From Candidatus Shapirobacteria bacterium (GTDB taxonomy: Bacteria > Patescibacteriota > Microgenomatia > UBA12405), in the NCBI GenBank assembly GCA_041665485.1, contig JBAYIT010000005.1, forward strand, positions 1,974 through 65,973: 64,000 nt of DNA, in the 5' to 3' direction. The notes beneath the pieces are model-generated. The model had not been told where the DNA came from, did no database searches, and saw nothing but the letters and a program-made list of their open reading frames with translations. This document shows, piece by piece, positions 4,649 to 63,036 of this stretch. The stretch's first letter is position 1. Every line of letters begins with the position of its first letter. Position numbers and translations under genes: made by a program.

Positions 4649-6024
4649 CAATAAAGTTTTTGCTATTTTTTTTGGCAGTTTGGGGGCTGGCAATAATTTT
4701 TCGGCCCTACAAGAGAGCTTATAAATTATTGATAATTGGGGCGAATTTAGTTTTCTACAGTTTTTTTGGAGTAACAGGACTGGTGGTTTTAGTAAGTGAT
4801 GTTTTACTAAATTACGGACTGCTAAAAATTTTGGGGAGACTAAAAGCGAAAAAAAAGGTTTTGGGGGTTGGAGTGGGTTTGAATTTACTGCTTTTGAGCA
4901 GTTATAAATATTTTAATAATCTGACGGGAATAACGGGGATGGAAATAATTGCCCCGATTGGAGTGTCGTTTTTTACTTTTAAAATTATTAGCGTTCTGAT
5001 TGATAGCTACCGACAAAAGATTCAGGTTAACAGTTTGGCCGACTACTTGGCCTATGTTAGCTTTTTTCCCCAAATATCGGCCGGGCCGATTGCCAGGTTT
5101 AAAGAATTTGCCGAGGATATAAACCAAGAGGAGCAAGGAGAGACGGAAAACAACAATATTGGGCCAAGATTTTGGACCTTAATAATTAGTGGCTGGCTTA
5201 AAATGTATTTAATTGGGAGCTACTTGTATGAAATAGTTAATCAAACGATTAATGCACCTCAAAGCTTTGGCCGGGTGGACTTAATTTTGGGCATGATGAG
5301 CTTGAGTTTTTTTATTTTTGCTAATTTTAGTGGCTATTCGGACATTTCGGAGGCGCTGGCGATGGCGCTGGGATTTAGAACGCCAAAGAATTTTAATAAC
5401 CCTTATCGGGCAGTGGGGATTCGAGATTTTTGGCAAAGGTGGCACATGAGCCTATCGACCTGGCTTAAGGACTACCTTTATATACCAATGGGGGGAAACC
5501 GGCGGGGACGGGCATGGAAATATTGCAATTTACTGGTGACCATGGTGGTGGGCGGAATGTGGCACGGAGCGGAAATTAACTTTTTGGTGTGGGGAGGGCT
5601 ACAGGGAGAAATGCTAATGATTGATCATTTTTTGCATGATACGGTGTGGCCAAAATTGAGAGGGGTGGCTAACTGGATAAAAATAGCGGGGAGAGGCGGG
5701 GGGTGGCTGATAACCTTTGGACTGATAAATATTAGTTGGATTATCTTTTATCCAAAAAACATGGAGGCGTCGGTGACCTATTTTGAATACTTGATTAGAC
5801 CAAGAGAGAACCTGGTGGTGCTGGGCTCGGGTGGGCTTCTGACAATCCTAATTTTGGCGGGGATTTTGAGCGTGAGAGGAGATAAATTTGAGGAAATAAT
5901 GGCCAAAACGTTAACTAAAGCCCCGGGAGTGGTAAGATATGTAGTACTAGTAGTGATATTTTATTTGATTATTACCTTCGGACCAAGTAACTATGTGGCT
6001 CCAGCCGCCTACTTTAATTTCTAA
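4636..6024 (+). CDS. MBOAT-family membrane O-acyltransferase (AlgI/DltB-like)
   Basis: 462 aa, multi-pass membrane protein. Has the MBOAT signature RWHMSLSTWLKDYLYIPMGGNRRG with the catalytic His. Confidence 0.85.
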   Translation: MSFLTIKFLLFFLAVWGLAIIFRPYKRAYKLLIIGANLVFYSFFGVTGLVVLVSDVLLNYGLLKILGRLKAKKKVLGVGVGLNLLLLSSYKYFNNLTGITGMEIIAPIGVSFFTFKIISVLIDSYRQKIQVNSLADYLAYVSFFPQISAGPIARFKEFAEDINQEEQGETENNNIGPRFWTLIISGWLKMYLIGSYLYEIVNQTINAPQSFGRVDLILGMMSLSFFIFANFSGYSDISEALAMALGFRTPKNFNNPYRAVGIRDFWQRWHMSLSTWLKDYLYIPMGGNRRGRAWKYCNLLVTMVVGGMWHGAEINFLVWGGLQGEMLMIDHFLHDTVWPKLRGVANWIKIAGRGGGWLITFGLINISWIIFYPKNMEASVTYFEYLIRPRENLVVLGSGGLLTILILAGILSVRGDKFEEIMAKTLTKAPGVVRYVVLVVIFYLIITFGPSNYVAPAAYFNF

Positions 6025-7393: not shown

Positions 7394-7431
7394 GAAATTA
7401 GGTGTGGACGTGGCGCAATGACGTTAGATGT

Positions 7432-10598: not shown

Positions 10599-10612
10599 GT
10601 GCTGATTCCGAC

Positions 10613-10654
10613 GAGATTGCCACGTCGCTTTTGTAACTGCTCCTCGCAATGACG
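10613..10654. repeat. REP-like palindromic dispersed repeat, copy a
   Basis: gagattgcCAcg ... cctcgcaatgacg: conserved 5' GAGATTGC(T/C)(T/A)CG and 3' CCTCGCAATGACG ends with a variable middle. Confidence 0.6.
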
Positions 10655-10684
10655 TTGTTTTTATTAGGCTGGATTGGTCGAAAC

Positions 10685-10730
10685 GAGATTGCTTCGTCTC
10701 CCGATAGCTATCGGGATCCTCGCAATGACG
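10685..10730. repeat. REP-like palindromic dispersed repeat, copy b (contains the perfect palindrome tcccgatagctatcggga)
   Basis: gagattgcttcg-tctcccgatagctatcgggat-cctcgcaatgacg. Confidence 0.65.
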
Positions 10731-10775
10731 TATTTAGAGGCAATGACCCTTCGACAGGCTCAGGGTAAACTACAA

Positions 10776-11258
10776 TTACCAACGTAAATGGGCGAAGGCT
10801 TTGTTGGCGTCGGCCATTCTTTCGATTTCGGCTCTTTTGGCAACAGAGGTGCCTTCGCTTTTGAGGGCGAGGGTGAGCTCGTTGGCCAATTTCAGACCAA
10901 ATGAGTGGAACTGTTTGTTTGGAAGTTTACGGGAATTGGCAATTAACCACCTGACGGCTAGGGAATCCTGACGATGACGACGGACGGGGGTGGGAACCTG
11001 GTAAACGGCACCACCAATGCGACGGGGGCGGACTTCAATTTTGGGACGGATGTTTTCTAGAGCTTGATCGACCAGAGTGGCGACTTCATCTTTGGGATTT
11101 TCTTTTTTTAAAATCTCTAAAGCTTGATAAACCTGCTTTTGGGCAGAAATTTTCTTACCGCCAATAAGGGAAGCGTTGATGATTTTTTGAACCAAAACAC
11201 TCTGATAGATGGGATCGGGGGTGATTTCCCGGGGTTTGATTGGACCTTTGCGTGACAT
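10776..11258 (-). CDS. rpsG: 30S ribosomal protein S7
   Basis: 160 aa; ends ...AEIERMADANKAFAHLRW, the S7 C-terminal signature. Confidence 0.95.
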   Translation of the reverse strand: MSRKGPIKPREITPDPIYQSVLVQKIINASLIGGKKISAQKQVYQALEILKKENPKDEVATLVDQALENIRPKIEVRPRRIGGAVYQVPTPVRRHRQDSLAVRWLIANSRKLPNKQFHSFGLKLANELTLALKSEGTSVAKRAEIERMADANKAFAHLRW

Positions 11259-11263
11259 ATATA

Positions 11264-11343
11264 AGTTATAAAGTTATAAAGTTTGAAAGTTATAAAGTTT
11301 GATAGTTATAAAGTTATAAAGTTTGAAAGTTATAAAGTTTGGA
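11264..11343. repeat. tandem array of ten 8-bp units AGTT(A/T)(T/G)AA (two copies of a 40-bp higher-order unit) in the rpsL-rpsG spacer
   Basis: agttataa agttataa agtttgaa agttataa agtttgat | agttataa agttataa agtttgaa agttataa agtttgga. Occupies almost the whole intergenic region directly before the rpsG ATG. Confidence 0.85.
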
Positions 11344-20866: not shown

Positions 20867-21888
20867 AGAAAATTTATATAAAAACGTTTGGATGTGTGCA
20901 GAATAGGGCTGATAGTGAGCGGATAAAAAGTTATTACTGGAACGAGGGCTATGAGCTGACGAACAAGTTAGAGGAGGCGGATTTAGTAGTAATTAACACC
21001 TGTGTCATTCGGGAGTCGGCGGAAAACAGGGCATATGGACTAATAAATCAGTTAAAAGTTAAAAGTTACAAGCTGAAAGTTGTGGTAACAGGATGTTTGG
21101 TGGGAACGGCGATAAGACAGAAAAAAATAAGAGCATTAAAGGCAAAGTTTCCCGAAGTGAATGAGTTTTTGCCGATAACCAAGTTTGATTATCCCAATCC
21201 CCCACTCCGGGATAAAACTAAAGCGGCGATGATACCAATTAGTTCGGGGTGTAACCATTTTTGTTCGTACTGTATTGTGCCATTTGCCCGGGGGCAGGAA
21301 ATTTCAAGAGATATAGAAGGGATATTAAAAGAGGTTGATTGGGCGATTAAAGACGGATTTAAAGAAGTGGTCTTAATTGGACAAAGTGTAAATTCCTATA
21401 ATGATGGCAAATTTTTTGAATTATTAGAAAAAGTGGCCAAAAAGCCATTGGAGAAAGTCTCGTTTATTAGCAGTAACCCATGGGATTTTTCGGATGAATT
21501 GATTAAAGTGATAGCTAAATATAAAAATATTGATCGGTTGATCCACCTACCAATCCAGTCGGGTGATGATGAAATACTAAAAAAGATGAACAGAGGTTAT
21601 ACTAGAGCTTTTTATTTGAAACTAGTCGACAAAATTAAAAAGGAAATTGAAGGGGTGAGAATTTCGACAGATATAATTGTGGGGTTCCCAGGAGAGGACG
21701 AAAAAGCCTTTCAAAACACGGTTAAGCTTTGCGAAAAAGTAAATTTTGATATTGCCTATATCAATAAGTATTCGCCCAGAAGAGGAACGGTGTCGGCCAA
21801 AATTTATGCCGATGATGTGCCGATGGCGGAAAAGAAAAGAAGGTGGATGGTGTTGGAGAAATTGGTTAACGAGAAAGAATTACTTTAA
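20863..21888 (+). CDS. radical-SAM methylthiotransferase (MiaB/RimO family, short form)
   Basis: MTTase N-terminal domain IKTFGCVQN plus radical-SAM cluster SSGCNHFCSYCIVPFARG. 341 aa, so the C-terminal TRAM domain looks truncated. Confidence 0.8.
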   Translation: MKKIYIKTFGCVQNRADSERIKSYYWNEGYELTNKLEEADLVVINTCVIRESAENRAYGLINQLKVKSYKLKVVVTGCLVGTAIRQKKIRALKAKFPEVNEFLPITKFDYPNPPLRDKTKAAMIPISSGCNHFCSYCIVPFARGQEISRDIEGILKEVDWAIKDGFKEVVLIGQSVNSYNDGKFFELLEKVAKKPLEKVSFISSNPWDFSDELIKVIAKYKNIDRLIHLPIQSGDDEILKKMNRGYTRAFYLKLVDKIKKEIEGVRISTDIIVGFPGEDEKAFQNTVKLCEKVNFDIAYINKYSPRRGTVSAKIYADDVPMAEKKRRWMVLEKLVNEKELL

Positions 21889-41117: not shown

Positions 41118-41182
41118 CGTCATCGCGAGGCCAAAGGCCGTGGCGATCTCAACGGGATTGCTTCGCTACGCTCGCAATGACG
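41118..41182. repeat. REP-like palindromic dispersed repeat, copy c (12-bp inverted arms cgtcatcgcgag / ctcgcaatgacg)
   Basis: Contains gggattgcttcgctacgctcgcaatgacg, near-identical to copy e at 58125-58153. Confidence 0.65.
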
Positions 41183-41188
41183 AAAAAC

Positions 41189-41220
41189 TATCTCCTCGGG
41201 GGGCGGAGGTCGGCGCGGAA
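41189..41220. repeat. 32-bp direct repeat, left copy (orphan duplicate of the pnp 3' end)
   Basis: tatctcctcggggggcggaggtcggcgcggaa is identical to 42359-42390, which encodes the pnp C-terminus RFRADLRPPRR plus the stop. Confidence 0.85.
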
Positions 41221-41261
41221 ACAAAAACTCTGAATCGGTGTGATATTATTCGTTTATATAT

Positions 41262-42350
41262 ATGCCTACTGACAAACTTCCTGAACTGTTTGGAAGAGAA
41301 GGTAATGAGGGTTTTGAGAGAGTCAGACCTTTTTGCTTAGATGTAGCAGATAGAGTAGATGCAGAATTAGCGACAAATAATGGTATTGTAGACCTACCAA
41401 CAATAACGGCATATAGTTATACTCTGTTGCTGGAAGGGGAGTATAGTGAGGGACTTAAAGCGATTTCATATACAAATCAACTTGATGATTATGCTAGAGG
41501 CGTATATGCTTTATCAGAAAAAAATGTTGGTAATGTGGCTGATCTTGGCTCCGAAGATAAGGCTTTATTGGCTTTAGTTCTGTCTATAAATTACTACCGA
41601 ATTGATAATGGCCACAAATATCAACTCAGTCATTTGAAACAGAATGAAGAATATTACCCGGGAAAAGATTTTAGAACTGGACTACAGATGGAAGAGACTT
41701 ACCTGGACCGGATCGGTGGCTGTCTTAGCTCTCTCGGTCTTGACCCAAACAGAACAGCTGATTACATTGCGAAGGCTGATGGCCAAGTACCATTTTCTAA
41801 ATGGCTAGTTCCTGGCGACATTATTGGGTTTGTAGAAGATCCGAGCAAATTTTTAAAGATAGCGCCAGCAAAACAAGAAGAAGTAGCGGTAGGTTTAGTT
41901 ACCCAGGACACAAAAGATACGTTTCCTTCGGTACATTCTCCCTACAGAGATGCAATGAGAAGGGCTATTGACGGATATCAAATAAAAGAAGAACGAGGGC
42001 GAGACCCTAATGTTTTTTTAAGAGAATCGAGGGCGGTAGCCAGAGTTATAAGTAAAAATGCCGATACAGAAACACTAAGACAAACGGGTATATGTTCTGA
42101 TAGCAAATCGATTGGTCGGGCGCTTGGTGATATTCGAAAGAATGGCTTGGTTGTTAACGGGTTGGATCTTGGTGGAGAAGGAAAAAAAAGATTAAGAGAT
42201 TTTCGGAAGGCGATTGTTTACGTTATGGATCCTAGTAGGTTGAAATTAGAAGAGGGAGAAAATCCAGCTGAAATTAGGAGTGTGTTTGAGGAATATTTAA
42301 GAGTACTTGACGAGGTAGGAGCAAAAAAATACAGTAAAGTGATGATTTAA
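41262..42350 (+). CDS. hypothetical protein (cargo of the DR-flanked insertion)
   Basis: 362 aa, no recognisable motif; tgtgatattat 13 nt upstream of the ATG is promoter-like. Confidence 0.5.
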   Translation: MPTDKLPELFGREGNEGFERVRPFCLDVADRVDAELATNNGIVDLPTITAYSYTLLLEGEYSEGLKAISYTNQLDDYARGVYALSEKNVGNVADLGSEDKALLALVLSINYYRIDNGHKYQLSHLKQNEEYYPGKDFRTGLQMEETYLDRIGGCLSSLGLDPNRTADYIAKADGQVPFSKWLVPGDIIGFVEDPSKFLKIAPAKQEEVAVGLVTQDTKDTFPSVHSPYRDAMRRAIDGYQIKEERGRDPNVFLRESRAVARVISKNADTETLRQTGICSDSKSIGRALGDIRKNGLVVNGLDLGGEGKKRLRDFRKAIVYVMDPSRLKLEEGENPAEIRSVFEEYLRVLDEVGAKKYSKVMI

Positions 42351-42357
42351 CCTCTTA

Positions 42358-44547
42358 TTATCTCCTCGGGGGGCGGAGGTCGGCGCGGAAGCGGCCAAAT
42401 TGGGGCCGGGGGCCGAAGTTAGCTTGAGACTCCCGGGGGCCATCGGTTGAACCAGGATGAGCAGATTTAAATTCCGGAGCAGATAACTTTATCTGATGAT
42501 TATCGTTGAAGCCGGAGACACGAACTTTAAGTTTGTCGCCGATTTTCATAATAGTGTTGGGGTCAGATAAAAAGCCACCAGTCATCTCGGAAACGTGAAG
42601 TAGGGCTTCACGGCCGGGAAGGAATTCAACAAAGGCGCCAAAATTTTCAATGCGGGTGACGGTGCCGTCAAACTCTTCGCCAACTTGGACTTCACGAACC
42701 ATCGATTCGATAGCAAAGACGGCTTTGTCAACATTGGCAATATCGGGCGAACAGACGGAAACCCGGCCATCGTCTTCAATGTCAATTTGAACTTGATATC
42801 TCTCCATTAAGGCTTTGATAGTTTTGCCACCACTGCCAACAACTTCGCCAATTTTTTCAACGGGAATGCGGACCATTTTAATTTTGGGGGCAAAAGGGGA
42901 AAGTTCGGCTTTGGGAGCAGTAATGGCTCTGTCCATAACATCAAGAATTTGGAGTCGGGCTTTAGTGGAAGCAACAAAAGTATCCCGAATCATGTCAAGA
43001 GAGAGGCCGGAGCGTTTGATGTCCAGCTGGATGGCAGTAATACCATCCCGAGTACCGGTAATTTTGAAATCCATGTCACCGTGATGATCTTCAATACCGG
43101 CAATGTCGGTTAAAAGCAAATATTTGCCACTGTCGTCGGAAACCATACCAACAGAAATACCGGCAACTTTGTTTTTGATGGGAACACCAGCATCCATTAA
43201 GGATAAAGTTGAACCACAAGTTGAGGCCATCGAAGATGAGCCGTTTTGAGACATAACTTCCGAAGTTAAGGTAATAGTGTAAGGAAACTCATCAACAGAA
43301 GGAATGACTGGCAAAAGAGCTTTTTCGGCCAAAGCTCCGTGGCCAATTTCCCGGCGGCCAGGGCGGCCGAAACGGCCGGTTTGACCGGTAGAAAATGGCG
43401 GAGCGGAGTAATAGTGAATATAGCGCTTAGTAGTTTCTCCTAAAGAATCCTGCAAATATTGTTGTTCGGATAGTGGGCCGAGAGTAGTAATAGTAACCGC
43501 TTGGGTTAAACCGCGTTGGAAAAGAGCCGAGCCATGAGTACAAGGTAAAACGCCGGTTTCAACGGAAACCGGGCGAATTTCGTCAAATCCACGTTTGTCG
43601 TAACGCTGGCCAGCAAGGGTCTGTTGACGGAAATAGCGGTGAATTAACAGGTCGAGAGCTTCCATCAAAAGGGACAGTTTAATTTCGCCTAATTTGATTT
43701 GAGGCTCGTAGGTGGATTCAACTTTTGATCTCAGAGCGATTTCGCCGGCAACATGGGCGCCGTCAGCGCCGGTAGCCATAAAGCTGGCAATATCATCTTT
43801 AAGTAAAGCATCAAGTTCAGAAATAAGACTCTCGGAGGGAGAACCGTTAATAAACTCAATTTTATTTTTACCGTATTTTTTAGCAAATTCAATCAATGAA
43901 GAATTGATTTGATCGCCAGTTTGGAAGGCAGTTTCCATACAAGCAAACATGGTGTCGTTATCAACTATCTGGGCGTCGGCTTCAATCATATTGATACCCT
44001 GACTATCGCGACAAACAAGAAGATCAAGACTGGATTTTAAACTTTCACTAATACTGGGGAATAAAGCCGGCTGGCCGTCAATATGACCAACTCGAACAGC
44101 AGAAACCGGGCCATTGAAAGGAATGTCAGAAATCATTAAAGCAGCGCTGGTGGCCAAAAAGGCGGGAACAACTACGTCGTGGTCTTTATCATTACTTAAA
44201 ACAGTAGCAATGACTTGAACTTCGTTTTTGAAACCAGAGGGAAAAAGAGGGCGGATGGCGCGATCAATAATCCGGCCAAAAAGGACGGCGGTGTCGGAAG
44301 GGCCACCTTCACGTTTAATCCATTTACCACCTTTGATAAAACCACCGGCATAAAGTTTGTCGGAAAATTCAACTGAAAGAGGAAAGTAATCTTTGGTTTC
44401 ATCGAGAGCTCCAAGGGTAACGGTGGCTAAAACAACGGTTTTGCCAAAAGTGGCTAAAACCGAGCCGTTAGCTTGAGGAGCGAGAGTGCCGGTTGAAAGG
44501 GTAACGATTTTGTTCCCAACAGAAATATCAAAGGAGTTGTTGTTCAT
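42358..44547 (-). CDS. pnp: polyribonucleotide nucleotidyltransferase (PNPase)
   Basis: 729 aa; two RNase PH domains, KH and S1 domains; C-terminal basic tail. Confidence 0.95.
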   Translation of the reverse strand: MNNNSFDISVGNKIVTLSTGTLAPQANGSVLATFGKTVVLATVTLGALDETKDYFPLSVEFSDKLYAGGFIKGGKWIKREGGPSDTAVLFGRIIDRAIRPLFPSGFKNEVQVIATVLSNDKDHDVVVPAFLATSAALMISDIPFNGPVSAVRVGHIDGQPALFPSISESLKSSLDLLVCRDSQGINMIEADAQIVDNDTMFACMETAFQTGDQINSSLIEFAKKYGKNKIEFINGSPSESLISELDALLKDDIASFMATGADGAHVAGEIALRSKVESTYEPQIKLGEIKLSLLMEALDLLIHRYFRQQTLAGQRYDKRGFDEIRPVSVETGVLPCTHGSALFQRGLTQAVTITTLGPLSEQQYLQDSLGETTKRYIHYYSAPPFSTGQTGRFGRPGRREIGHGALAEKALLPVIPSVDEFPYTITLTSEVMSQNGSSSMASTCGSTLSLMDAGVPIKNKVAGISVGMVSDDSGKYLLLTDIAGIEDHHGDMDFKITGTRDGITAIQLDIKRSGLSLDMIRDTFVASTKARLQILDVMDRAITAPKAELSPFAPKIKMVRIPVEKIGEVVGSGGKTIKALMERYQVQIDIEDDGRVSVCSPDIANVDKAVFAIESMVREVQVGEEFDGTVTRIENFGAFVEFLPGREALLHVSEMTGGFLSDPNTIMKIGDKLKVRVSGFNDNHQIKLSAPEFKSAHPGSTDGPRESQANFGPRPQFGRFRADLRPPRR

Positions 44548-47740: not shown

Positions 47741-47781
47741 CGTCATTGCGAGGAATTCTAATTTACGACGAAGCAATGACG
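47741..47781. repeat. REP-like palindromic dispersed repeat, copy d (reverse orientation; perfect 9-bp arms cgtcattgc / gcaatgacg)
   Basis: cgtcattgcgagg-aattctaatttacga-cgaagcaatgacg in the 53-bp nusA-infB spacer. Confidence 0.6.
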
Positions 47782-58089: not shown

Positions 58090-58124
58090 GGATTAATTTA
58101 TAGTGGGCAGTGATATGTCCAGAC

Positions 58125-58153
58125 GAGATTGCTTCGCTACGCTCGCAATGACG
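58125..58153. repeat. REP-like dispersed repeat, copy e
   Basis: gagattgcttcgctacgctcgcaatgacg, 28/29 identical to the core of copy c. Confidence 0.65.
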
Positions 58154-58164
58154 TGGTTGTTTTA

Positions 58165-58333
58165 CCTATTTTACAAGACAGGGGGCGCCGGGTTGAGGAG
58201 ATGAAGGATGGCCGTGCATGGCCCAATAGCCATTACTACATACCCAAGTGTCTTCCGGAGTCATGACGCGGGCAAAAGAAACGAAGAGGATTATGAAAGC
58301 AATGATAAGGATAACTGGCCTCATGGGCCTCAT
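58165..58333 (-). CDS. small ORF (about 55 aa) encoding a putative secreted/membrane peptide (coordinates approximate)
   Basis: MRPMRPVILIIAFIILFVSFARVMTPEDTWVCSNGYWAMHGHPSSPQPGAPCLVK; below the ORF-track size cutoff. Confidence 0.25.
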
Positions 58334-58352: not shown

Positions 58353-59762
58353 TTAGATAAGTAGTTTTTCGAGGATTTGGCGGGCGAGGGCGGGATTGGC
58401 GGAACCAGCGGAAAGTTTCATAAGTTGACCAACTAAAAAGCCGATAGAATTGGGATTCTTTTTGTAGTCGTCGATGGCTTTAGGATTATCGGCTAAAACC
58501 TTTTTGGCTAAGTCTTCGATTTTGCCAGTATCAGAGACTTGAAAAAGATTTTGGTCTTTGGCTAAACTCAAGGGATCAGTGCCAGACTGATAGGAATCAA
58601 TAATTAGTTGTTTGATGGCAGTTGAGGATAATTCGCTTTTGTGATCAAAAAGATTTTTAAAGTGGATGGGATTAATTTTTCCAATATCAATGGAAATAGT
58701 TTTTAATGGTCCGATCATTAAATTGGTAACAAATTTAGCAAATTGAGGGTCAGTAGATTTATCTATGGCTTTTTCAAATGAGGAGGAAAAATCCGAATCT
58801 TCGGCCAAAAGACTGGCGTCGTAGTCGGAAAGGCCAAGTGATTTATATTTGGCAATTTTTTCTTGGGGAAGCTCGGGGATGACGGAGCGAATGGCTTCGA
58901 TATCTTCGTTGGTGAATTCAAAAGGAGGAATGTCGGGCTCGGGGAAATAACGATAGTCGGCACTTCCCTCTTTTTCCCGCTGTAAAAAAGTTTGGTTTTT
59001 ATCGGCATCCCAGCCGCGAGTAGTCTTATTACTAGAATTTTTGGTGATGCCGGTTTGTTGCCAGTCTTGATACTGGCGGTCGATTTCGAATTGAATGGCG
59101 GTCATGACGCCGGTTAGCGAAGCGACGTTTTTGATTTCGGCTAGGGGTGTATAAACAGTCTCTTCCCCTGTCTCAATTTTGAGGTTAACAGTGGGTTCGC
59201 AACGCATACTGCCTTTTTCAATATCAGCATCGGAAATGCTCAAATAACGAATTATTTGCTGAATTTTGTTTAAGTATTTTTTGGCCATTTGAGGGCTTTC
59301 GATATCCGGCTCGGAAACAATTTCAACTAGGGGTACACCGGAGCGATTGTAATCGAGAAGAGTTAGATCGTTAAGATGAACAGATTTACCAGTGTCCTCC
59401 TCCATGTGGACACGATTGATGCGAATGAGGTGGCCATCAATATCGATTTGACCGCCAATAGTAAATGGTTTTTGATATTGGCTAATTTGGTAGCCCTTGG
59501 GAAGATCGGGGTAAAAATAATTTTTGCGCTCAAAAAAAGACTGTTTGTTGACCGAACAGCCTAATGATAGCCCAAGTTTTAAGCACCAGTCGATAGCAGT
59601 TTTGTTGGGGACGGGCAGGGCGCCGGGGAGGCCAAGGCAGACGGGACAGGTGTGAGTGTTGGGGTCAACATGAAAGTGGTCGGCATTACAGTCGCAAAAC
59701 ATTTTGGATTTGGTTTTGAGTTCGACGTGGACTTCAAGACCGATGATGGGAGTAATAACCAT
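58353..59762 (-). CDS. gatB: Asp/Glu-tRNA amidotransferase subunit B
   Basis: PIIGLEVHVELKTKSKMFC N-terminus and C-terminal YqeY-like tail. Confidence 0.93.
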   Translation of the reverse strand: MVITPIIGLEVHVELKTKSKMFCDCNADHFHVDPNTHTCPVCLGLPGALPVPNKTAIDWCLKLGLSLGCSVNKQSFFERKNYFYPDLPKGYQISQYQKPFTIGGQIDIDGHLIRINRVHMEEDTGKSVHLNDLTLLDYNRSGVPLVEIVSEPDIESPQMAKKYLNKIQQIIRYLSISDADIEKGSMRCEPTVNLKIETGEETVYTPLAEIKNVASLTGVMTAIQFEIDRQYQDWQQTGITKNSSNKTTRGWDADKNQTFLQREKEGSADYRYFPEPDIPPFEFTNEDIEAIRSVIPELPQEKIAKYKSLGLSDYDASLLAEDSDFSSSFEKAIDKSTDPQFAKFVTNLMIGPLKTISIDIGKINPIHFKNLFDHKSELSSTAIKQLIIDSYQSGTDPLSLAKDQNLFQVSDTGKIEDLAKKVLADNPKAIDDYKKNPNSIGFLVGQLMKLSAGSANPALARQILEKLLI

Positions 59763-59767
59763 AATTT

Positions 59768-59809
59768 AATTTTTAATTTGAAATTTTTAATTTTTAAACA
59801 ATTTTTAAT
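59768..59809. repeat. 42-bp AT-rich dispersed repeat, copy 2 (overlaps the last codons of the ClbS-like gene and the gatB upstream region)
   Basis: aatttttaatttgaaatttttaatttttaaacaatttttaat. Confidence 0.7.
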
Positions 59810-60246
59810 GACTTAATTGTCTGTAAGTGATCGGTAACATGTTGGATCCAGATTGAAAGATATTTTTGTGGAGTACGACTTTTTTTCTCTGGAAATAGCG
59901 GTTTGTCCCAATAAATTTTATCCAAATTTCTTAATTTGTTAATTAGTTTTTGACTGGTCTGTTGATAGGTTTTAATCACATTTTGATAACTATCGTTTTT
60001 GAACTTGGCGGTAGAATTTTTATTAAGATTAGGGATAGTAACCCAAATAGATTTTTCAATTTTATTATTGATTAGGTTGTCTAATTCTTCAATAAAATGT
60101 TCATCCCAGCCAACAAGATGGGCAATGACATCTTTCAAACTCCACTTATCGAATATAATTTCCTCTCTTTTGGCGGCAGGAAAAGAGGAGATGGTTTCAA
60201 AAAAATCTTTTGAGGCGGATTGGAACTGGCTGATTCGGTCGGTCAT
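59794..60246 (-). CDS. ClbS/DfsB-like (DUF1706) four-helix-bundle protein inserted between gatA and gatB
   Basis: 150 aa; WSLKDVIAHLVGWDEHFIEEL resembles the DUF1706 core (family recalled, not searched). Confidence 0.4.
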   Translation of the reverse strand: MTDRISQFQSASKDFFETISSFPAAKREEIIFDKWSLKDVIAHLVGWDEHFIEELDNLINNKIEKSIWVTIPNLNKNSTAKFKNDSYQNVIKTYQQTSQKLINKLRNLDKIYWDKPLFPEKKSRTPQKYLSIWIQHVTDHLQTIKSLKIV

Positions 60247-62026: not shown

Positions 62027-63036
62027 CTAATTTCCAGACTTGAACAGTCTAGCTTTGAGGCGGAGGAGTTGCCAGCGGTATTTGTCAATTAAGTTATAAA
62101 GTTTATAAAGTTGCAAGTTTATCAAGAGATCGTAAGTACCGACGAATTGGACTAGGTCGCCGCCATAGCCTTGTTTGAAACGATGAAAGCCGTAACCATT
62201 GTCTATTTCCTTGGCATCGGGGCCAAGACAACCCCACATATCAAAAGATTTGAGTTTTAGAGATTTACCCAGTTTGATTACTTCCCACATCAAAAGAGTG
62301 GGGGCCATGACTTCGCGGTTGGTGTCTAGTGAAGCGCCGTATGGGTAAAAAAGGCGGTCTTTTTCAATAAAAAGCATGAATGAGGCAAGGGGTTGGTTTT
62401 GATAACTGGCAGTCATTATTCGAACTTTACCGGTGTTTTTTAATAGTTGCCAAAGTTTTTGATGATAAGAACGAGTATGGAGATAAAAACCCTGGCGCTT
62501 GGTGGTGTCGAAAAGTAGGTCTAAATAAACTTTAAAACCAGCGTCGGTGGTGGTGTCTTCAACTTTAACGTTGTAACGATTGGCGATACGAATGTTTAAC
62601 GGGTTTTGGGGTGCATGATAGCGAGAAGTTCGTCTTCGGTTTTAGTGAGATCAACGATAAAAGAATAAGGGTAAAAAGCAACTTTGGGAGAAACAACAAG
62701 GTTCTCGAAACCATAGCCAGTTTTACCAATAACATCGGGCTCAAATTTAACAAAAATAGCGTTTTCGTCGAGGGCGATTTTTTGAATATTGGTAATAGTC
62801 TCCTGCGTAATCTCCGGACCACGGAGAACGGTGCCGATAGAAAAGTTAGTGTGAGGAATTTTGTGGAAGGAAACGGAGTAGGCCGAGACCATTTTGGCTT
62901 TATCAAAAACTCCAAGGCGATAAACCTTGTGGCCCTGGCTTGTTTGAAAATCACCCCATTCCCAGGTTTGAACTGGATGGCGAACTAGGTCGTTGTATTG
63001 CTTTTTTTCTTCGGTATAGAGAATTCTGGTAATCAT
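62027..63036 (-). pseudogene. FemX/FemAB-family aminoacyltransferase gene with a frameshift at a ccccaaaaccc tract near 62605-62625
   Basis: N-terminal ORF (62596..63036) has QTWEWGDFQ. C-terminal ORF (62027..62416) has FHRFKQGYGG. A third frame (APQNPLNIRIANRYNVKVEDTTTDAGFKVYLDLLFDTTKRQGFYLHTRSYHQKLWQLLKNTGKVRIMTASYQNQ...) bridges the two pieces without a stop. Confidence 0.6.

Follow-up and report, generated by a model that had tools for sequence, protein, structure and literature searches.

Short CGTC-tagged palindromic units in the operon spacers of a Candidatus Shapirobacteria bacterium, a probable REP/REPIN-type element

The DNA analyzed here, referred to as the window, is a stretch of 64,000 nucleotides (64 kb) from contig JBAYIT010000005.1 (positions 1,974 to 65,973; assembly GCA_041665485.1) of Candidatus Shapirobacteria, a lineage of the Microgenomates group within the Patescibacteria. 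These bacteria and other members of the Candidate Phyla Radiation (CPR) have genomes of about 1 Mb and very short spacers between genes. The NusA and S7 sequences encoded in the window are identical to NCBI proteins from a metagenome-assembled genome of this lineage. Pfam analysis of the window open reading frames (ORFs) identified ribosomal protein S7, NusA, IF-2, PNPase, a Lon-like AAA+ protein, a UvrD/PD-(D/E)XK helicase-nuclease and GatB. A preceding annotation made from the letters alone, here called the sequence-only reading, had noted a family of short palindromic dispersed repeats beside some of these genes, and the Pfam results agree with the identities it gave them (rpsG, nusA, infB, Lon-like and helicase-nuclease). 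This repeat family is the subject of the present analysis. All of the repeat copies noted are present where they had been placed; the count of five is correct for the loci but not for the units, of which there are six, since the copy at 41118-41182 consists of two inverted units. We named the units A, B, C1, C2, D and E. All of them lie in spacers of minus-strand operons and, read on the strand that begins with CGTC (the CGTC strand), they share the scaffold CGTC-ATTGC-GA, upper stem and apex, G-H-R-GCAAT and a short tail, the G-H-R triplet being G(A/T/C)(A/G) in the window units.

The right end of the units is the 12-mer CTCGCAATGACG, which occurs exactly at 10643, 10719, 41171 and 58142 on the plus strand and at 47741 on the minus strand; its one-mismatch variant CTCGCGATGACG is found at 41118 on the minus strand. 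According to our own arithmetic, about 0.008 exact occurrences would be expected on both strands of 64 kb, against the five seen. When up to two mismatches were permitted, nine matches were obtained versus 2.6 +/- 1.5 in dinucleotide shuffles, none of the 100 shuffles reaching nine, so that the matches do not dissolve when scored against shuffled sequence. The left end, GAGATTGCTTCG, is not significant when taken alone (10 matches with up to two mismatches versus 5.3, with 3 of 100 shuffles reaching 10), and the right end always accompanies it. The density of units is 0.09 per kb in the window versus about 0.02 per kb in the loci of 80 relatives, and no further unit is present in the extra 7.7 kb of the 75-kb source contig that lie outside the window.

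Units A and B are located in the spacer after rpsG. Unit A (10612-10654, minus strand) reads CGTC-ATTGC-GA-G-GA-GC-AGTTACAAAA-GC-GA-C-GTG-GCAAT-CTCG, that is, the scaffold of a 33-nt class described below with an enlarged, unstructured loop of 10 nt closed by GC/GC; its predicted DNA fold has an energy of -3.9 kcal/mol (z +0.28), and the next ORF start (10487) is 124 nt downstream. In unit B (10684-10730, minus strand) the apex of the same scaffold is replaced by TCCCGATAGCTATCGGGA (10699-10716), the perfect 18-bp palindrome already recognized inside one of the copies. The CGTC end of this unit is 45 nt past the rpsG stop codon, and its DNA fold is predicted at -8.7 kcal/mol (z -1.7). Unit C1 (41118-41150, plus strand) is the left member of an inverted pair and reads CGTC-ATCGC-GA-GGCC-AAA-GGCC-GTG-GCGAT-CTC (fold z -2.4); the start of the Lon-like gene is 23 nt downstream. 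Unit C2 (41153-41182, minus strand), the right member, belongs to a 27-nt class with a GCGTAGC mini-hairpin apex, and its CGTC end is 5 nt past the ancestral stop codon of pnp, preserved in a 32-nt duplicate at 41189-41220 that a later insertion of 1.17 kb produced. The whole C1/C2 pair folds at -16.8 kcal/mol (z -3.0).

Unit D (47741-47781, plus strand) has the 33-nt-class scaffold with an AT-rich apex of 12 nt and GACG in place of the tail, and both of its ends are CGTCATTGC, so that the terminal inverted repeat measures 9 bp; the predicted fold has -9.0 kcal/mol (z -3.9). The spacer between nusA and infB is filled by this unit, which begins 1 nt past the nusA stop codon and finishes 11 nt before the infB start. 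Unit E (58124-58153, minus strand) is of the 27-nt class, CGTC-ATTGC-GA-GCGTAGC-GAA-GCAAT-CTCG, and differs from C2 in two tail bases and in nothing else; it is placed 12 nt past the stop codon of a 55-aa ORF (58166-58333) and 34 nt before the start of the helicase-nuclease gene. The longer scaffold G-GA-apex-GA-C is common to units A, B and D, and the tails of the window units are the variants CTC, CCC or GAC. The ends had been described as partly self-complementary, and a 5-bp ATTGC/GCAAT stem can indeed be observed; in C1, however, it is ATCGC/GCGAT, changed on both sides, a compensated stem that occurs seven times elsewhere. It had also been remarked that every copy lies upstream of a minus-strand start codon. 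This is true, at distances of 11-124 nt, but it is incidental; most units are nearer to the stop codon of the preceding gene.

The wider family was collected by scanning for the pattern GATTGC, 4-34 nt, CTCGCAATGACG. At least 120 stretches in viral contigs and at least 120 in species-representative genomes carry it, and more than 240 loci were taken. Among the matches listed, the motif ranges over well over a dozen bacterial phyla, plus plasmids and phages. These matches include Alpha- and Gammaproteobacteria (Bradyrhizobium, sphingomonads, Micavibrio, Rickettsiales and Legionellales), Bacteroidota (Pedobacter, Hymenobacter, Tannerella and Rikenella), Firmicutes (Oscillospiraceae and Sporomusa), Dehalococcoidia and other Chloroflexi, Nitrospirales, Planctomycetota, Patescibacteria, Saccharibacteria, Melainabacteria, Armatimonadetes, Zixibacteria, Ignavibacteria and Haliangium. 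The plasmids are those of Novosphingobium (at least 40 places in one replicon), Methylobacterium, Methylosinus, Legionella and three cyanobacteria, and the motif is also carried by prophages of Helicobacter canis. It is absent from 5,426 complete Escherichia coli genomes.

The units were then re-extracted by the right end (one mismatch at most) and the nearest ATTGC, which yielded 466 unique units from about 240 loci. A number of features that this pattern does not impose are conserved: G precedes ATTGC in 97% of the units, the four bases after ATTGC are Y-D-C-G at 71-96%, and the tail on the CGTC strand is GCAAT-CCA-G (C in 97%; C in 62% and T in 33%; A in 53% and C in 29%; G in 46%). The conserved part is made up of the arms rather than the apex. 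The unit lengths peak at 27 nt and 33 nt. The half-sites ATTGC and GCAAT are separated by anything from 12 to more than 40 nt across the family, and the six window units have separations of 17-34 nt.

With regard to arrangement, 119 of 158 close pairs (within 60 nt) are inverted with their CGTC ends outward, as in C1/C2, and these inverted pairs are REPIN-like doublets. Their spacers have a mode of 22-26 nt, begin with CAG, finish with CTG and are often palindromic. In the window this arrangement is seen at one of the five loci. Among the singletons, 23 have an ORF stop no more than 10 nt ahead of the CGTC end, compared with 10 that have one this close ahead of the tail end, and in the Shapirobacteria clade the CGTC strand is the sense strand in about eight of nine singletons (our own tally). 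The CGTC strand is also biased to the locally C-rich strand, significantly so overall (83 vs 51 loci), an effect that stems from the viral contigs (51 vs 26 loci) and is not seen in genomes (31 vs 25).

Both stems of the predicted hairpin covary. In the basal stem, whose first two pairs (A-T, T-A) were fixed by the search pattern used for the count, the remaining three pairs are TGC/GCA in 353 units, CGC/GCG in seven and CAC/GTG in one, versus about nine one-sided mismatches; wobble pairs show no strand preference. The stem starts with A-T, T-A in 56 of the 57 distinct units of the 33-nt class, and it is ATTGC/GCAAT or ATCGC/GCGAT in all window units. In the upper helix of the same 57 units, all five pairs change on both sides, with 25 doubly changed cells versus 5.3 +/- 1.7 in shuffles (reached in none of 500), and lower values in controls in which the partner strand was slid. 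Two positions of this helix are G.A or A.G in about 75% of the units and Watson-Crick pairs in the rest.

The folding of the copies, calculated as DNA, gave a divided result: units B, C1 and D and the C1/C2 pair reach z values of -1.7 to -3.9, whereas the short units stay near zero. In the family, the units with long apices (n = 122) have a median z of -1.65, and for 44% of them no more than five of 100 shuffles fold as well. The commonest apices, in the 27-nt class, are GCGAAGC (61), GCGCAGC (28), GCGTAGC (20) and GCGGAGC (12), in which only the N of GCGNAGC varies, and the apex of a 25-nt class is G-GNA-C. The commonest apex is exactly the d(GCGNAGC) mini-hairpin of Hirao and colleagues (PMC13037366), with all four bases at N, and the sheared G.A pairing of that structure is implied at the flanking tandem G.A positions. 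As DNA the mini-hairpin melts at 70-76 C, and the related RNA octamer r(GCGAAAGC) at 39 C (PMC13037366). The mini-hairpin, however, is a structural motif and not a genetic element, and in the units it is a dispensable apical module, being missing from A, B, C1 and D. The CGTC tag stays outside the stem in the predicted folds. Given the G.A/GNA signature, the active form is probably the purine-rich CGTC strand, likely as DNA.

The presence of units at orthologous positions was compared across 80 metagenome loci of relatives (854 kb), with NusA mostly 64-73% identical to that of the window and in one case 89%. They contain 24 pattern matches, of which about 15 were judged to be true units. The nusA-infB spacer, filled by unit D in the window, is 0-35 nt long and empty in most of the 66 relatives in which it could be measured; it is occupied in only two, by a pair in L290, the first unit of which shows a doubly compensated stem (ATCAC/GTGAT), and by a degenerate unit in L288. 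The pnp-lon spacer is 18-46 nt long and empty in about half of the relatives, the closest included; in the closest relatives with an empty spacer, the CTATACTGAAT box is retained, which in the window comes after pair C. An independent unit abuts the pnp stop codon in L301. Conversely, the dnaJ-nusA spacer holds units in other relatives, whereas the window has none there. Further metagenome contigs from the window organism are 99.97-100% identical and thus uninformative on polymorphism between strains. Since orthologous spacers are empty in most relatives, the copies have been gained and lost, spacer by spacer.

The pnp-lon spacer is also a hot spot for other inserted genes, which are found there in many of the 80 relatives. 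In the window, an insertion of 1.17 kb (41189-42390) starts 6 nt from C2 and contains one plus-strand ORF (41262-42350, 362 aa). Both boundaries of the insertion are formed by an exact direct repeat of 32 nt (41189-41220 = 42359-42390) that copies the 3' end of pnp. The ORF was considered as a recombinase, but it belongs to no Pfam, NCBIfam or PHROG family; it is absent from the 80 relatives.

The architecture of the units is that of the CGTC-tagged repetitive extragenic palindromes (REPs), among which the Neisseria dRS3-type repeats are counted. In this group, four families (CGTC-1 to CGTC-4), with RPE-4 and also RPE-6 of Rickettsia included, were described by Di Nocera, De Gregorio and Rocco (2013, BMC Genomics 14:522, PMC3733652). 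According to the definition given there, a CGTC REP has an unpaired CGTC, a stem of 8-9 bp starting with A-T, T-A, a loop of 4-5 nt and a CCA tail, and these REPs occur mostly as inverted dimers near the 3' ends of ORFs, without a transposase (PMC3733652). The present units agree in the unpaired CGTC at one end (six of six window units), the A-T, T-A start of the stem and a short tail that fits CCA in the wider family. They also agree in the predominance of inverted pairs, the range across phyla, the lack of an associated transposase gene and the placement in intergenic spacers that separate co-directional or convergent genes, near where the upstream ORF has its 3' end. They differ from that definition in that they have no continuous stem of 8-9 bp and no loop of 4-5 nt; instead, their design combines a basal stem of 5 bp with a conserved internal loop of purines (2x3), a tandem-G.A upper stem and an apex whose length ranges from 3 to more than 30 nt. 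The tail in the window genome is CTC and not CCA, and Patescibacteria, Chloroflexi, Firmicutes, Planctomycetes, Nitrospirae and phages are newly seen as hosts relative to the published family descriptions.

The pruning step of Di Nocera and co-workers dropped palindromes with more than one mismatch or with unusual loops, and the authors state that bulged classes likely escaped (PMC3733652). It follows that the present family is probably uncatalogued, and it possibly represents a bulged family set apart from the four CGTC families as these are described. The CGTC-1 repeats of Bradyrhizobium, for which 'loops of different length' are mentioned, or the CGTC-2 repeats of N. aromaticivorans may nevertheless be the same family. 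The REP-encoded peptides given in that paper correspond to the other stems ATTCCCGC, ATGCCCGG and ATACCGTGG, and back-translation of peptides such as VIAAVAAMM suggests that some Sphingomonas wittichii CGTC-1 units also appear to start with ATTGC. In the literature collection searched, no paper on REPs in the CPR was found, and searches with sequence strings returned only primers and unrelated matches, with no paper quoting the unit sequences.

Other known repeats were also compared. The GTAG REPs and REPINs, whose RAYT (TnpA-REP) is a Y1 HUH enzyme, resemble the units as short imperfect palindromes with an unpaired tetranucleotide, with inverted doublets that can fold as one hairpin, a high copy number, a position downstream of genes and a presumed recognition as single-stranded DNA. 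In contrast to them, the units carry the tag CGTC and bracket no RAYT gene in the window or the loci taken, and they keep one 12-mer across phyla, whereas GTAG REPs are mostly lineage-restricted. The E. coli BIMEs, Neisseria NIMEs and rhizobial RIMEs likewise place several small repeats in one spacer, as in the spacer after rpsG (A, B, a half unit and CCTTCGACAGGCTCAGGG), but this is the only such cluster in the window and it has no regular alternation of orientations. The term MITE (miniature inverted-repeat transposable element), which the sequence-only reading had used beside REP, holds only loosely, as true terminal inverted repeats are present in unit D alone (9 bp) and no target-site duplication is visible at the six units.

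Taken together, we consider it probable that the units are a non-autonomous palindromic element of the REP/REPIN type, either a member of the CGTC-tagged REP superfamily or a close ally of it. The dispersed REP-like family proposed from the letters alone is upheld by the CGTC-REP architecture, the occurrence as singletons and an inverted pair, the co-directional spacers close to stop codons, the hairpin with its covarying stems, the cross-phylum range and the presence or absence of copies in orthologous spacers; no transposase is linked to the units in the loci taken. The active form would be an intrastrand hairpin with a 5' unpaired CGTC tag followed by the 5-bp ATTGC/GCAAT basal stem. This would be continued by an asymmetric purine loop (GA opposite G-H-R) and an upper stem, often with tandem G.A, and closed by a replaceable apex, mostly the GNA triloop of GCGNAGC; the tail would be CCA in most hosts and CTC in this lineage. 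Copies would come and go in short spacers, chiefly just past stop codons, where they would be co-transcribed with housekeeping operons. As to the route, we can only tentatively propose a spread through a single-stranded DNA intermediate, brought about in trans by an HUH-type (Y1/RAYT-like) or another enzyme. An inserted hairpin, once transcribed, could modestly alter the 3'-end stability or the translation termination of the upstream gene.

A mobilizing enzyme was looked for in the window and the loci taken, with about 72 kb of the source genome covered, and none was identified. All-against-all clustering of 1,867 ORFs from 240 loci revealed no family concentrated beside the units, and no bracketed RAYT gene was found in the window or in the loci taken. 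Such a transposase-less state agrees with what is stated for the published CGTC REPs (PMC3733652). The classical GTAG REPs (GTAGAGACGC-N-GCGTCTCTAC) are a different family; in one relative (L289, 20100-20984) a RAYT-like Y1 transposase gene is flanked by GTAG REPs GTAGAGACGC...GCGTCTCTAC. They also occur in the nusA-infB spacer of L309, and no GTAGAGACGC-type REP is present in the window. In a single case, at 555-1839 of a Patescibacteria metagenome-assembled genome (L159), a transposase fragment of the IS256/Mutator family lies between two inverted CGTC units; this insertion sequence may have inserted into a pair of units.

It is important to mention that several results weigh against the proposed REP/REPIN-type element. 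A hidden Markov model of RAYT/TIRYT proteins, built from the published alignment (supplement of PMC3733652), matched two ORFs in 2.9 Mb, neither bracketed by CGTC units and none in the window; one of them is the gene of L289 between GTAG REPs, and the other (L118) starts at the edge of its locus and has one unit about 190 nt downstream. Pfam analysis of 10 of the 15 ORFs that are bracketed by units identified ordinary genes such as capsid, portal and SAICAR synthase, a response regulator and one IS256-like fragment. Mobility is deduced from presence and absence alone, four of the six window units have unique apices and so give no sign of a recent burst, and neither a target-site duplication nor a conserved target sequence is visible at any of the six window units. 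The predicted DNA folds of the short units of 27-31 nt (z about 0) are no better than those of shuffles, and the stability of these units would rest on the literature for G.A/GNA motifs, which nearest-neighbour models miss. Singletons between co-directional genes have the CGTC strand in the sense orientation in 46 cases versus 30, a weak bias, and the bias to the C-rich strand is significant in viral contigs only, with none in bacterial genomes. Finally, the scans demanded exact ends, and their counts are lower bounds and not a census.

A related alternative, which we regard as unlikely, is that the units form a pan-bacterial class of single-stranded DNA hairpins whose arms (CGTC-ATTGC-GA...GHR-GCAAT-CCA) are kept identical by a widespread machinery unlinked to the units. 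The candidates for this machinery would be an HUH enzyme that acts in trans, some activity of replication or repair, or a spread by phages, and the apex would be an exchangeable cassette, such as GCGNAGC, TCCCGATAGCTATCGGGA or, as in L221, a version of CCTTCGACARGCTCAGGG. If true, it would amount to a mechanism for mobile DNA without a dedicated transposase.

It is also rather improbable that the units are selected RNA elements, that is, hairpins transcribed in 3' UTRs and operon spacers that keep 3' exonucleases off the upstream mRNA or hold back ribosomes at its stop codon. The E. coli REPs reportedly do both (Newbury 1987; Liang, Rudd and Deutscher 2015). The location of the units 1-45 nt past stop codons in co-directional operons, the sense orientation of about eight of nine Shapirobacteria singletons and the excess of stops just before the CGTC end (23 vs 10) are all in line with such a role. 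The overall bias in orientation is nevertheless weak, most units stand in inverted pairs, and the empty orthologous spacers of relatives indicate that there is no conserved requirement for the units. Moreover, GNA triloops and tandem G.A favour the stability of DNA over that of RNA, and the wobble pairs lack a strand preference. Rfam gave no match to the units above chance level even at E = 10 (nothing at the gathering score in the whole 64 kb, tRNA and rRNA included, and chance-level hits only on the units at E <= 10). An RNA-level effect, on mRNA 3' stability or, for units within about 15 nt of a stop codon, on termination, is compatible with the REP-type element as a secondary consequence, but leaves the distribution of the units unexplained. 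Two other structural candidates were rejected. The units have no T runs and no terminator-like site and are therefore not intrinsic terminators, and by inspection the GA/GAA internal loop fits neither a kink-turn nor a loop-E motif in strand lengths and sequence.

Very little probability was assigned to the units being single-strand initiation or replication signals, in which GCGNAGC would serve as a site for primase or a replication protein on exposed single-stranded DNA. Phage G4-type origins and plasmid ssiA contain mini-hairpins with this sequence, which resist the binding of single-strand DNA-binding protein (PMC13037366), and the units do occur in phages and plasmids, with the CGTC strand biased to the C-rich strand in viral contigs. 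Yet many units, A, B, C1 and D among them, have no mini-hairpin apex, and it is the arms that are conserved and not the apex; the bacterial genomes show no strand bias, and the copy number and the position of the units, post-stop and paired, fit REPs better.

The further suggestion of the sequence-only reading, a shared operator or duplex protein-binding site that co-regulates the downstream minus-strand genes, has been abandoned as highly improbable. The palindromic ends ATTGC/GCAAT do resemble half-sites, and each unit is upstream of a start codon at the distances already given. However, a half-site spacing that varies as described above is incompatible with a fixed dimer on duplex DNA, and the identical sequence is found in unrelated phyla, on plasmids and between the capsid and portal genes of phages. 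In addition, the promoter and terminator scans of the window gave no site coinciding with the units, the downstream genes are functionally unrelated, and most relatives are without units at the corresponding genes.

The attC sites of integrons have the core sites RYYYAAC/GTTRRRY. That the units are attC-like or other site-specific recombination sites can practically be dismissed: the superficially similar build (a conserved basal stem, an unpaired centre and a variable terminal structure) and the gene insertion 6 nt from C2 are outweighed by ends (CGTCATTGC/GCAATC) that do not fit these core sites, by flanking genes that are housekeeping genes and not cassettes, by the lack of an integrase or recombinase domain in the neighbouring ORFs examined, and by the boundaries of the insertion, which are set by the duplicate of the pnp 3' end and not by units.

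Apart from the six units, partial copies can be observed in the window. A possible truncated seventh copy (7412-7423, plus strand) consists of the right end GGCGCAATGACG only, in a convergent spacer and with no left arm. At 10739-10765 (plus strand), half of a right end, GGCAATGAC (10739-10747), is fused to a second dispersed motif, CCTTCGACAGGCTCAGGG, and the 288-nt spacer after rpsG is in this way a mosaic of repeats, with A, B, the half right end and CCTTCGACAGGCTCAGGG. The second motif, CCTTCGACARGCTCAGGG, has a single copy in the window (10748-10765), adjoining unit B. Outside the window it is listed for L005, L023, L080, L221 and L301; unrelated viral contigs have exact copies, and one CGTC unit, in L221, has a version of the motif as its apex. 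The palindrome of unit B, TCCCGATAGCTATCGGGA, is identical in an unrelated viral contig (L112, about 4807-4824), outside any CGTC unit, and its 14-nt core occurs twice in L056 (1144-1157 and 2386-2399); it thus looks like a module that recurs independently of the units. The idea that the variable apices are generally nested copies of other repeats was rejected, since only seven of 65 long cores recur outside units, and these are short G+C-rich strings; the core in L221 and the 18-nt palindrome that unit B carries are nevertheless real recurrences.

The units also create short spurious plus-strand ORFs (58103-58266 and 10649-10787), with products such as ...RRDCFATLAMT..., MLRYARND... and ...EIASSPDSYRDPRND.... 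In metagenome protein catalogues, ORFs of this origin could be mistaken for genes by automatic annotation and should be masked.

Several other features of the window were noted. About ten tandem 8-nt units (AGTTATAA / AGTTTGAA) at 11258-11339 fill most of the rpsL-rpsG spacer, and related arrays with a period of 7-8 nt are found in three other spacers (21050-21081, 1943-1979 and 62088-62120); similar short-period arrays are present in the nusA-infB spacer of the relatives L291 and L293. An AT-rich intergenic repeat, AATTTTTAATTT(T/G)AAATTTTTAATTTTTAAAC, occurs at 2057-2130 and 59759-59831 and also in the nusA-infB spacer of L298, L300, L301, L308 and L317, and may be a promoter-region or other lineage-specific element. 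The plus strand is G-rich throughout 1-64000 (GC skew +0.06 to +0.22), and most long ORFs, those of rpoB/rpoC and the ribosomal protein genes included, are on the minus strand, so that the coding strand is C-rich, which is unusual.

If the units are, as we consider probable, selfish elements of the REP type, their position 1-12 nt past the stop codons of core genes such as nusA and pnp would mean that even compact CPR genomes are still invaded; through the units, essential operons acquire a different 3' context. With arms that are identical in hundreds of unrelated genomes, plasmids and phages but lacking in E. coli, this family lends itself well to phylogenetic profiling aimed at the mobilizing enzyme. 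Of the new leads, the very broad host range and the hairpin signature of DNA type are the most useful.

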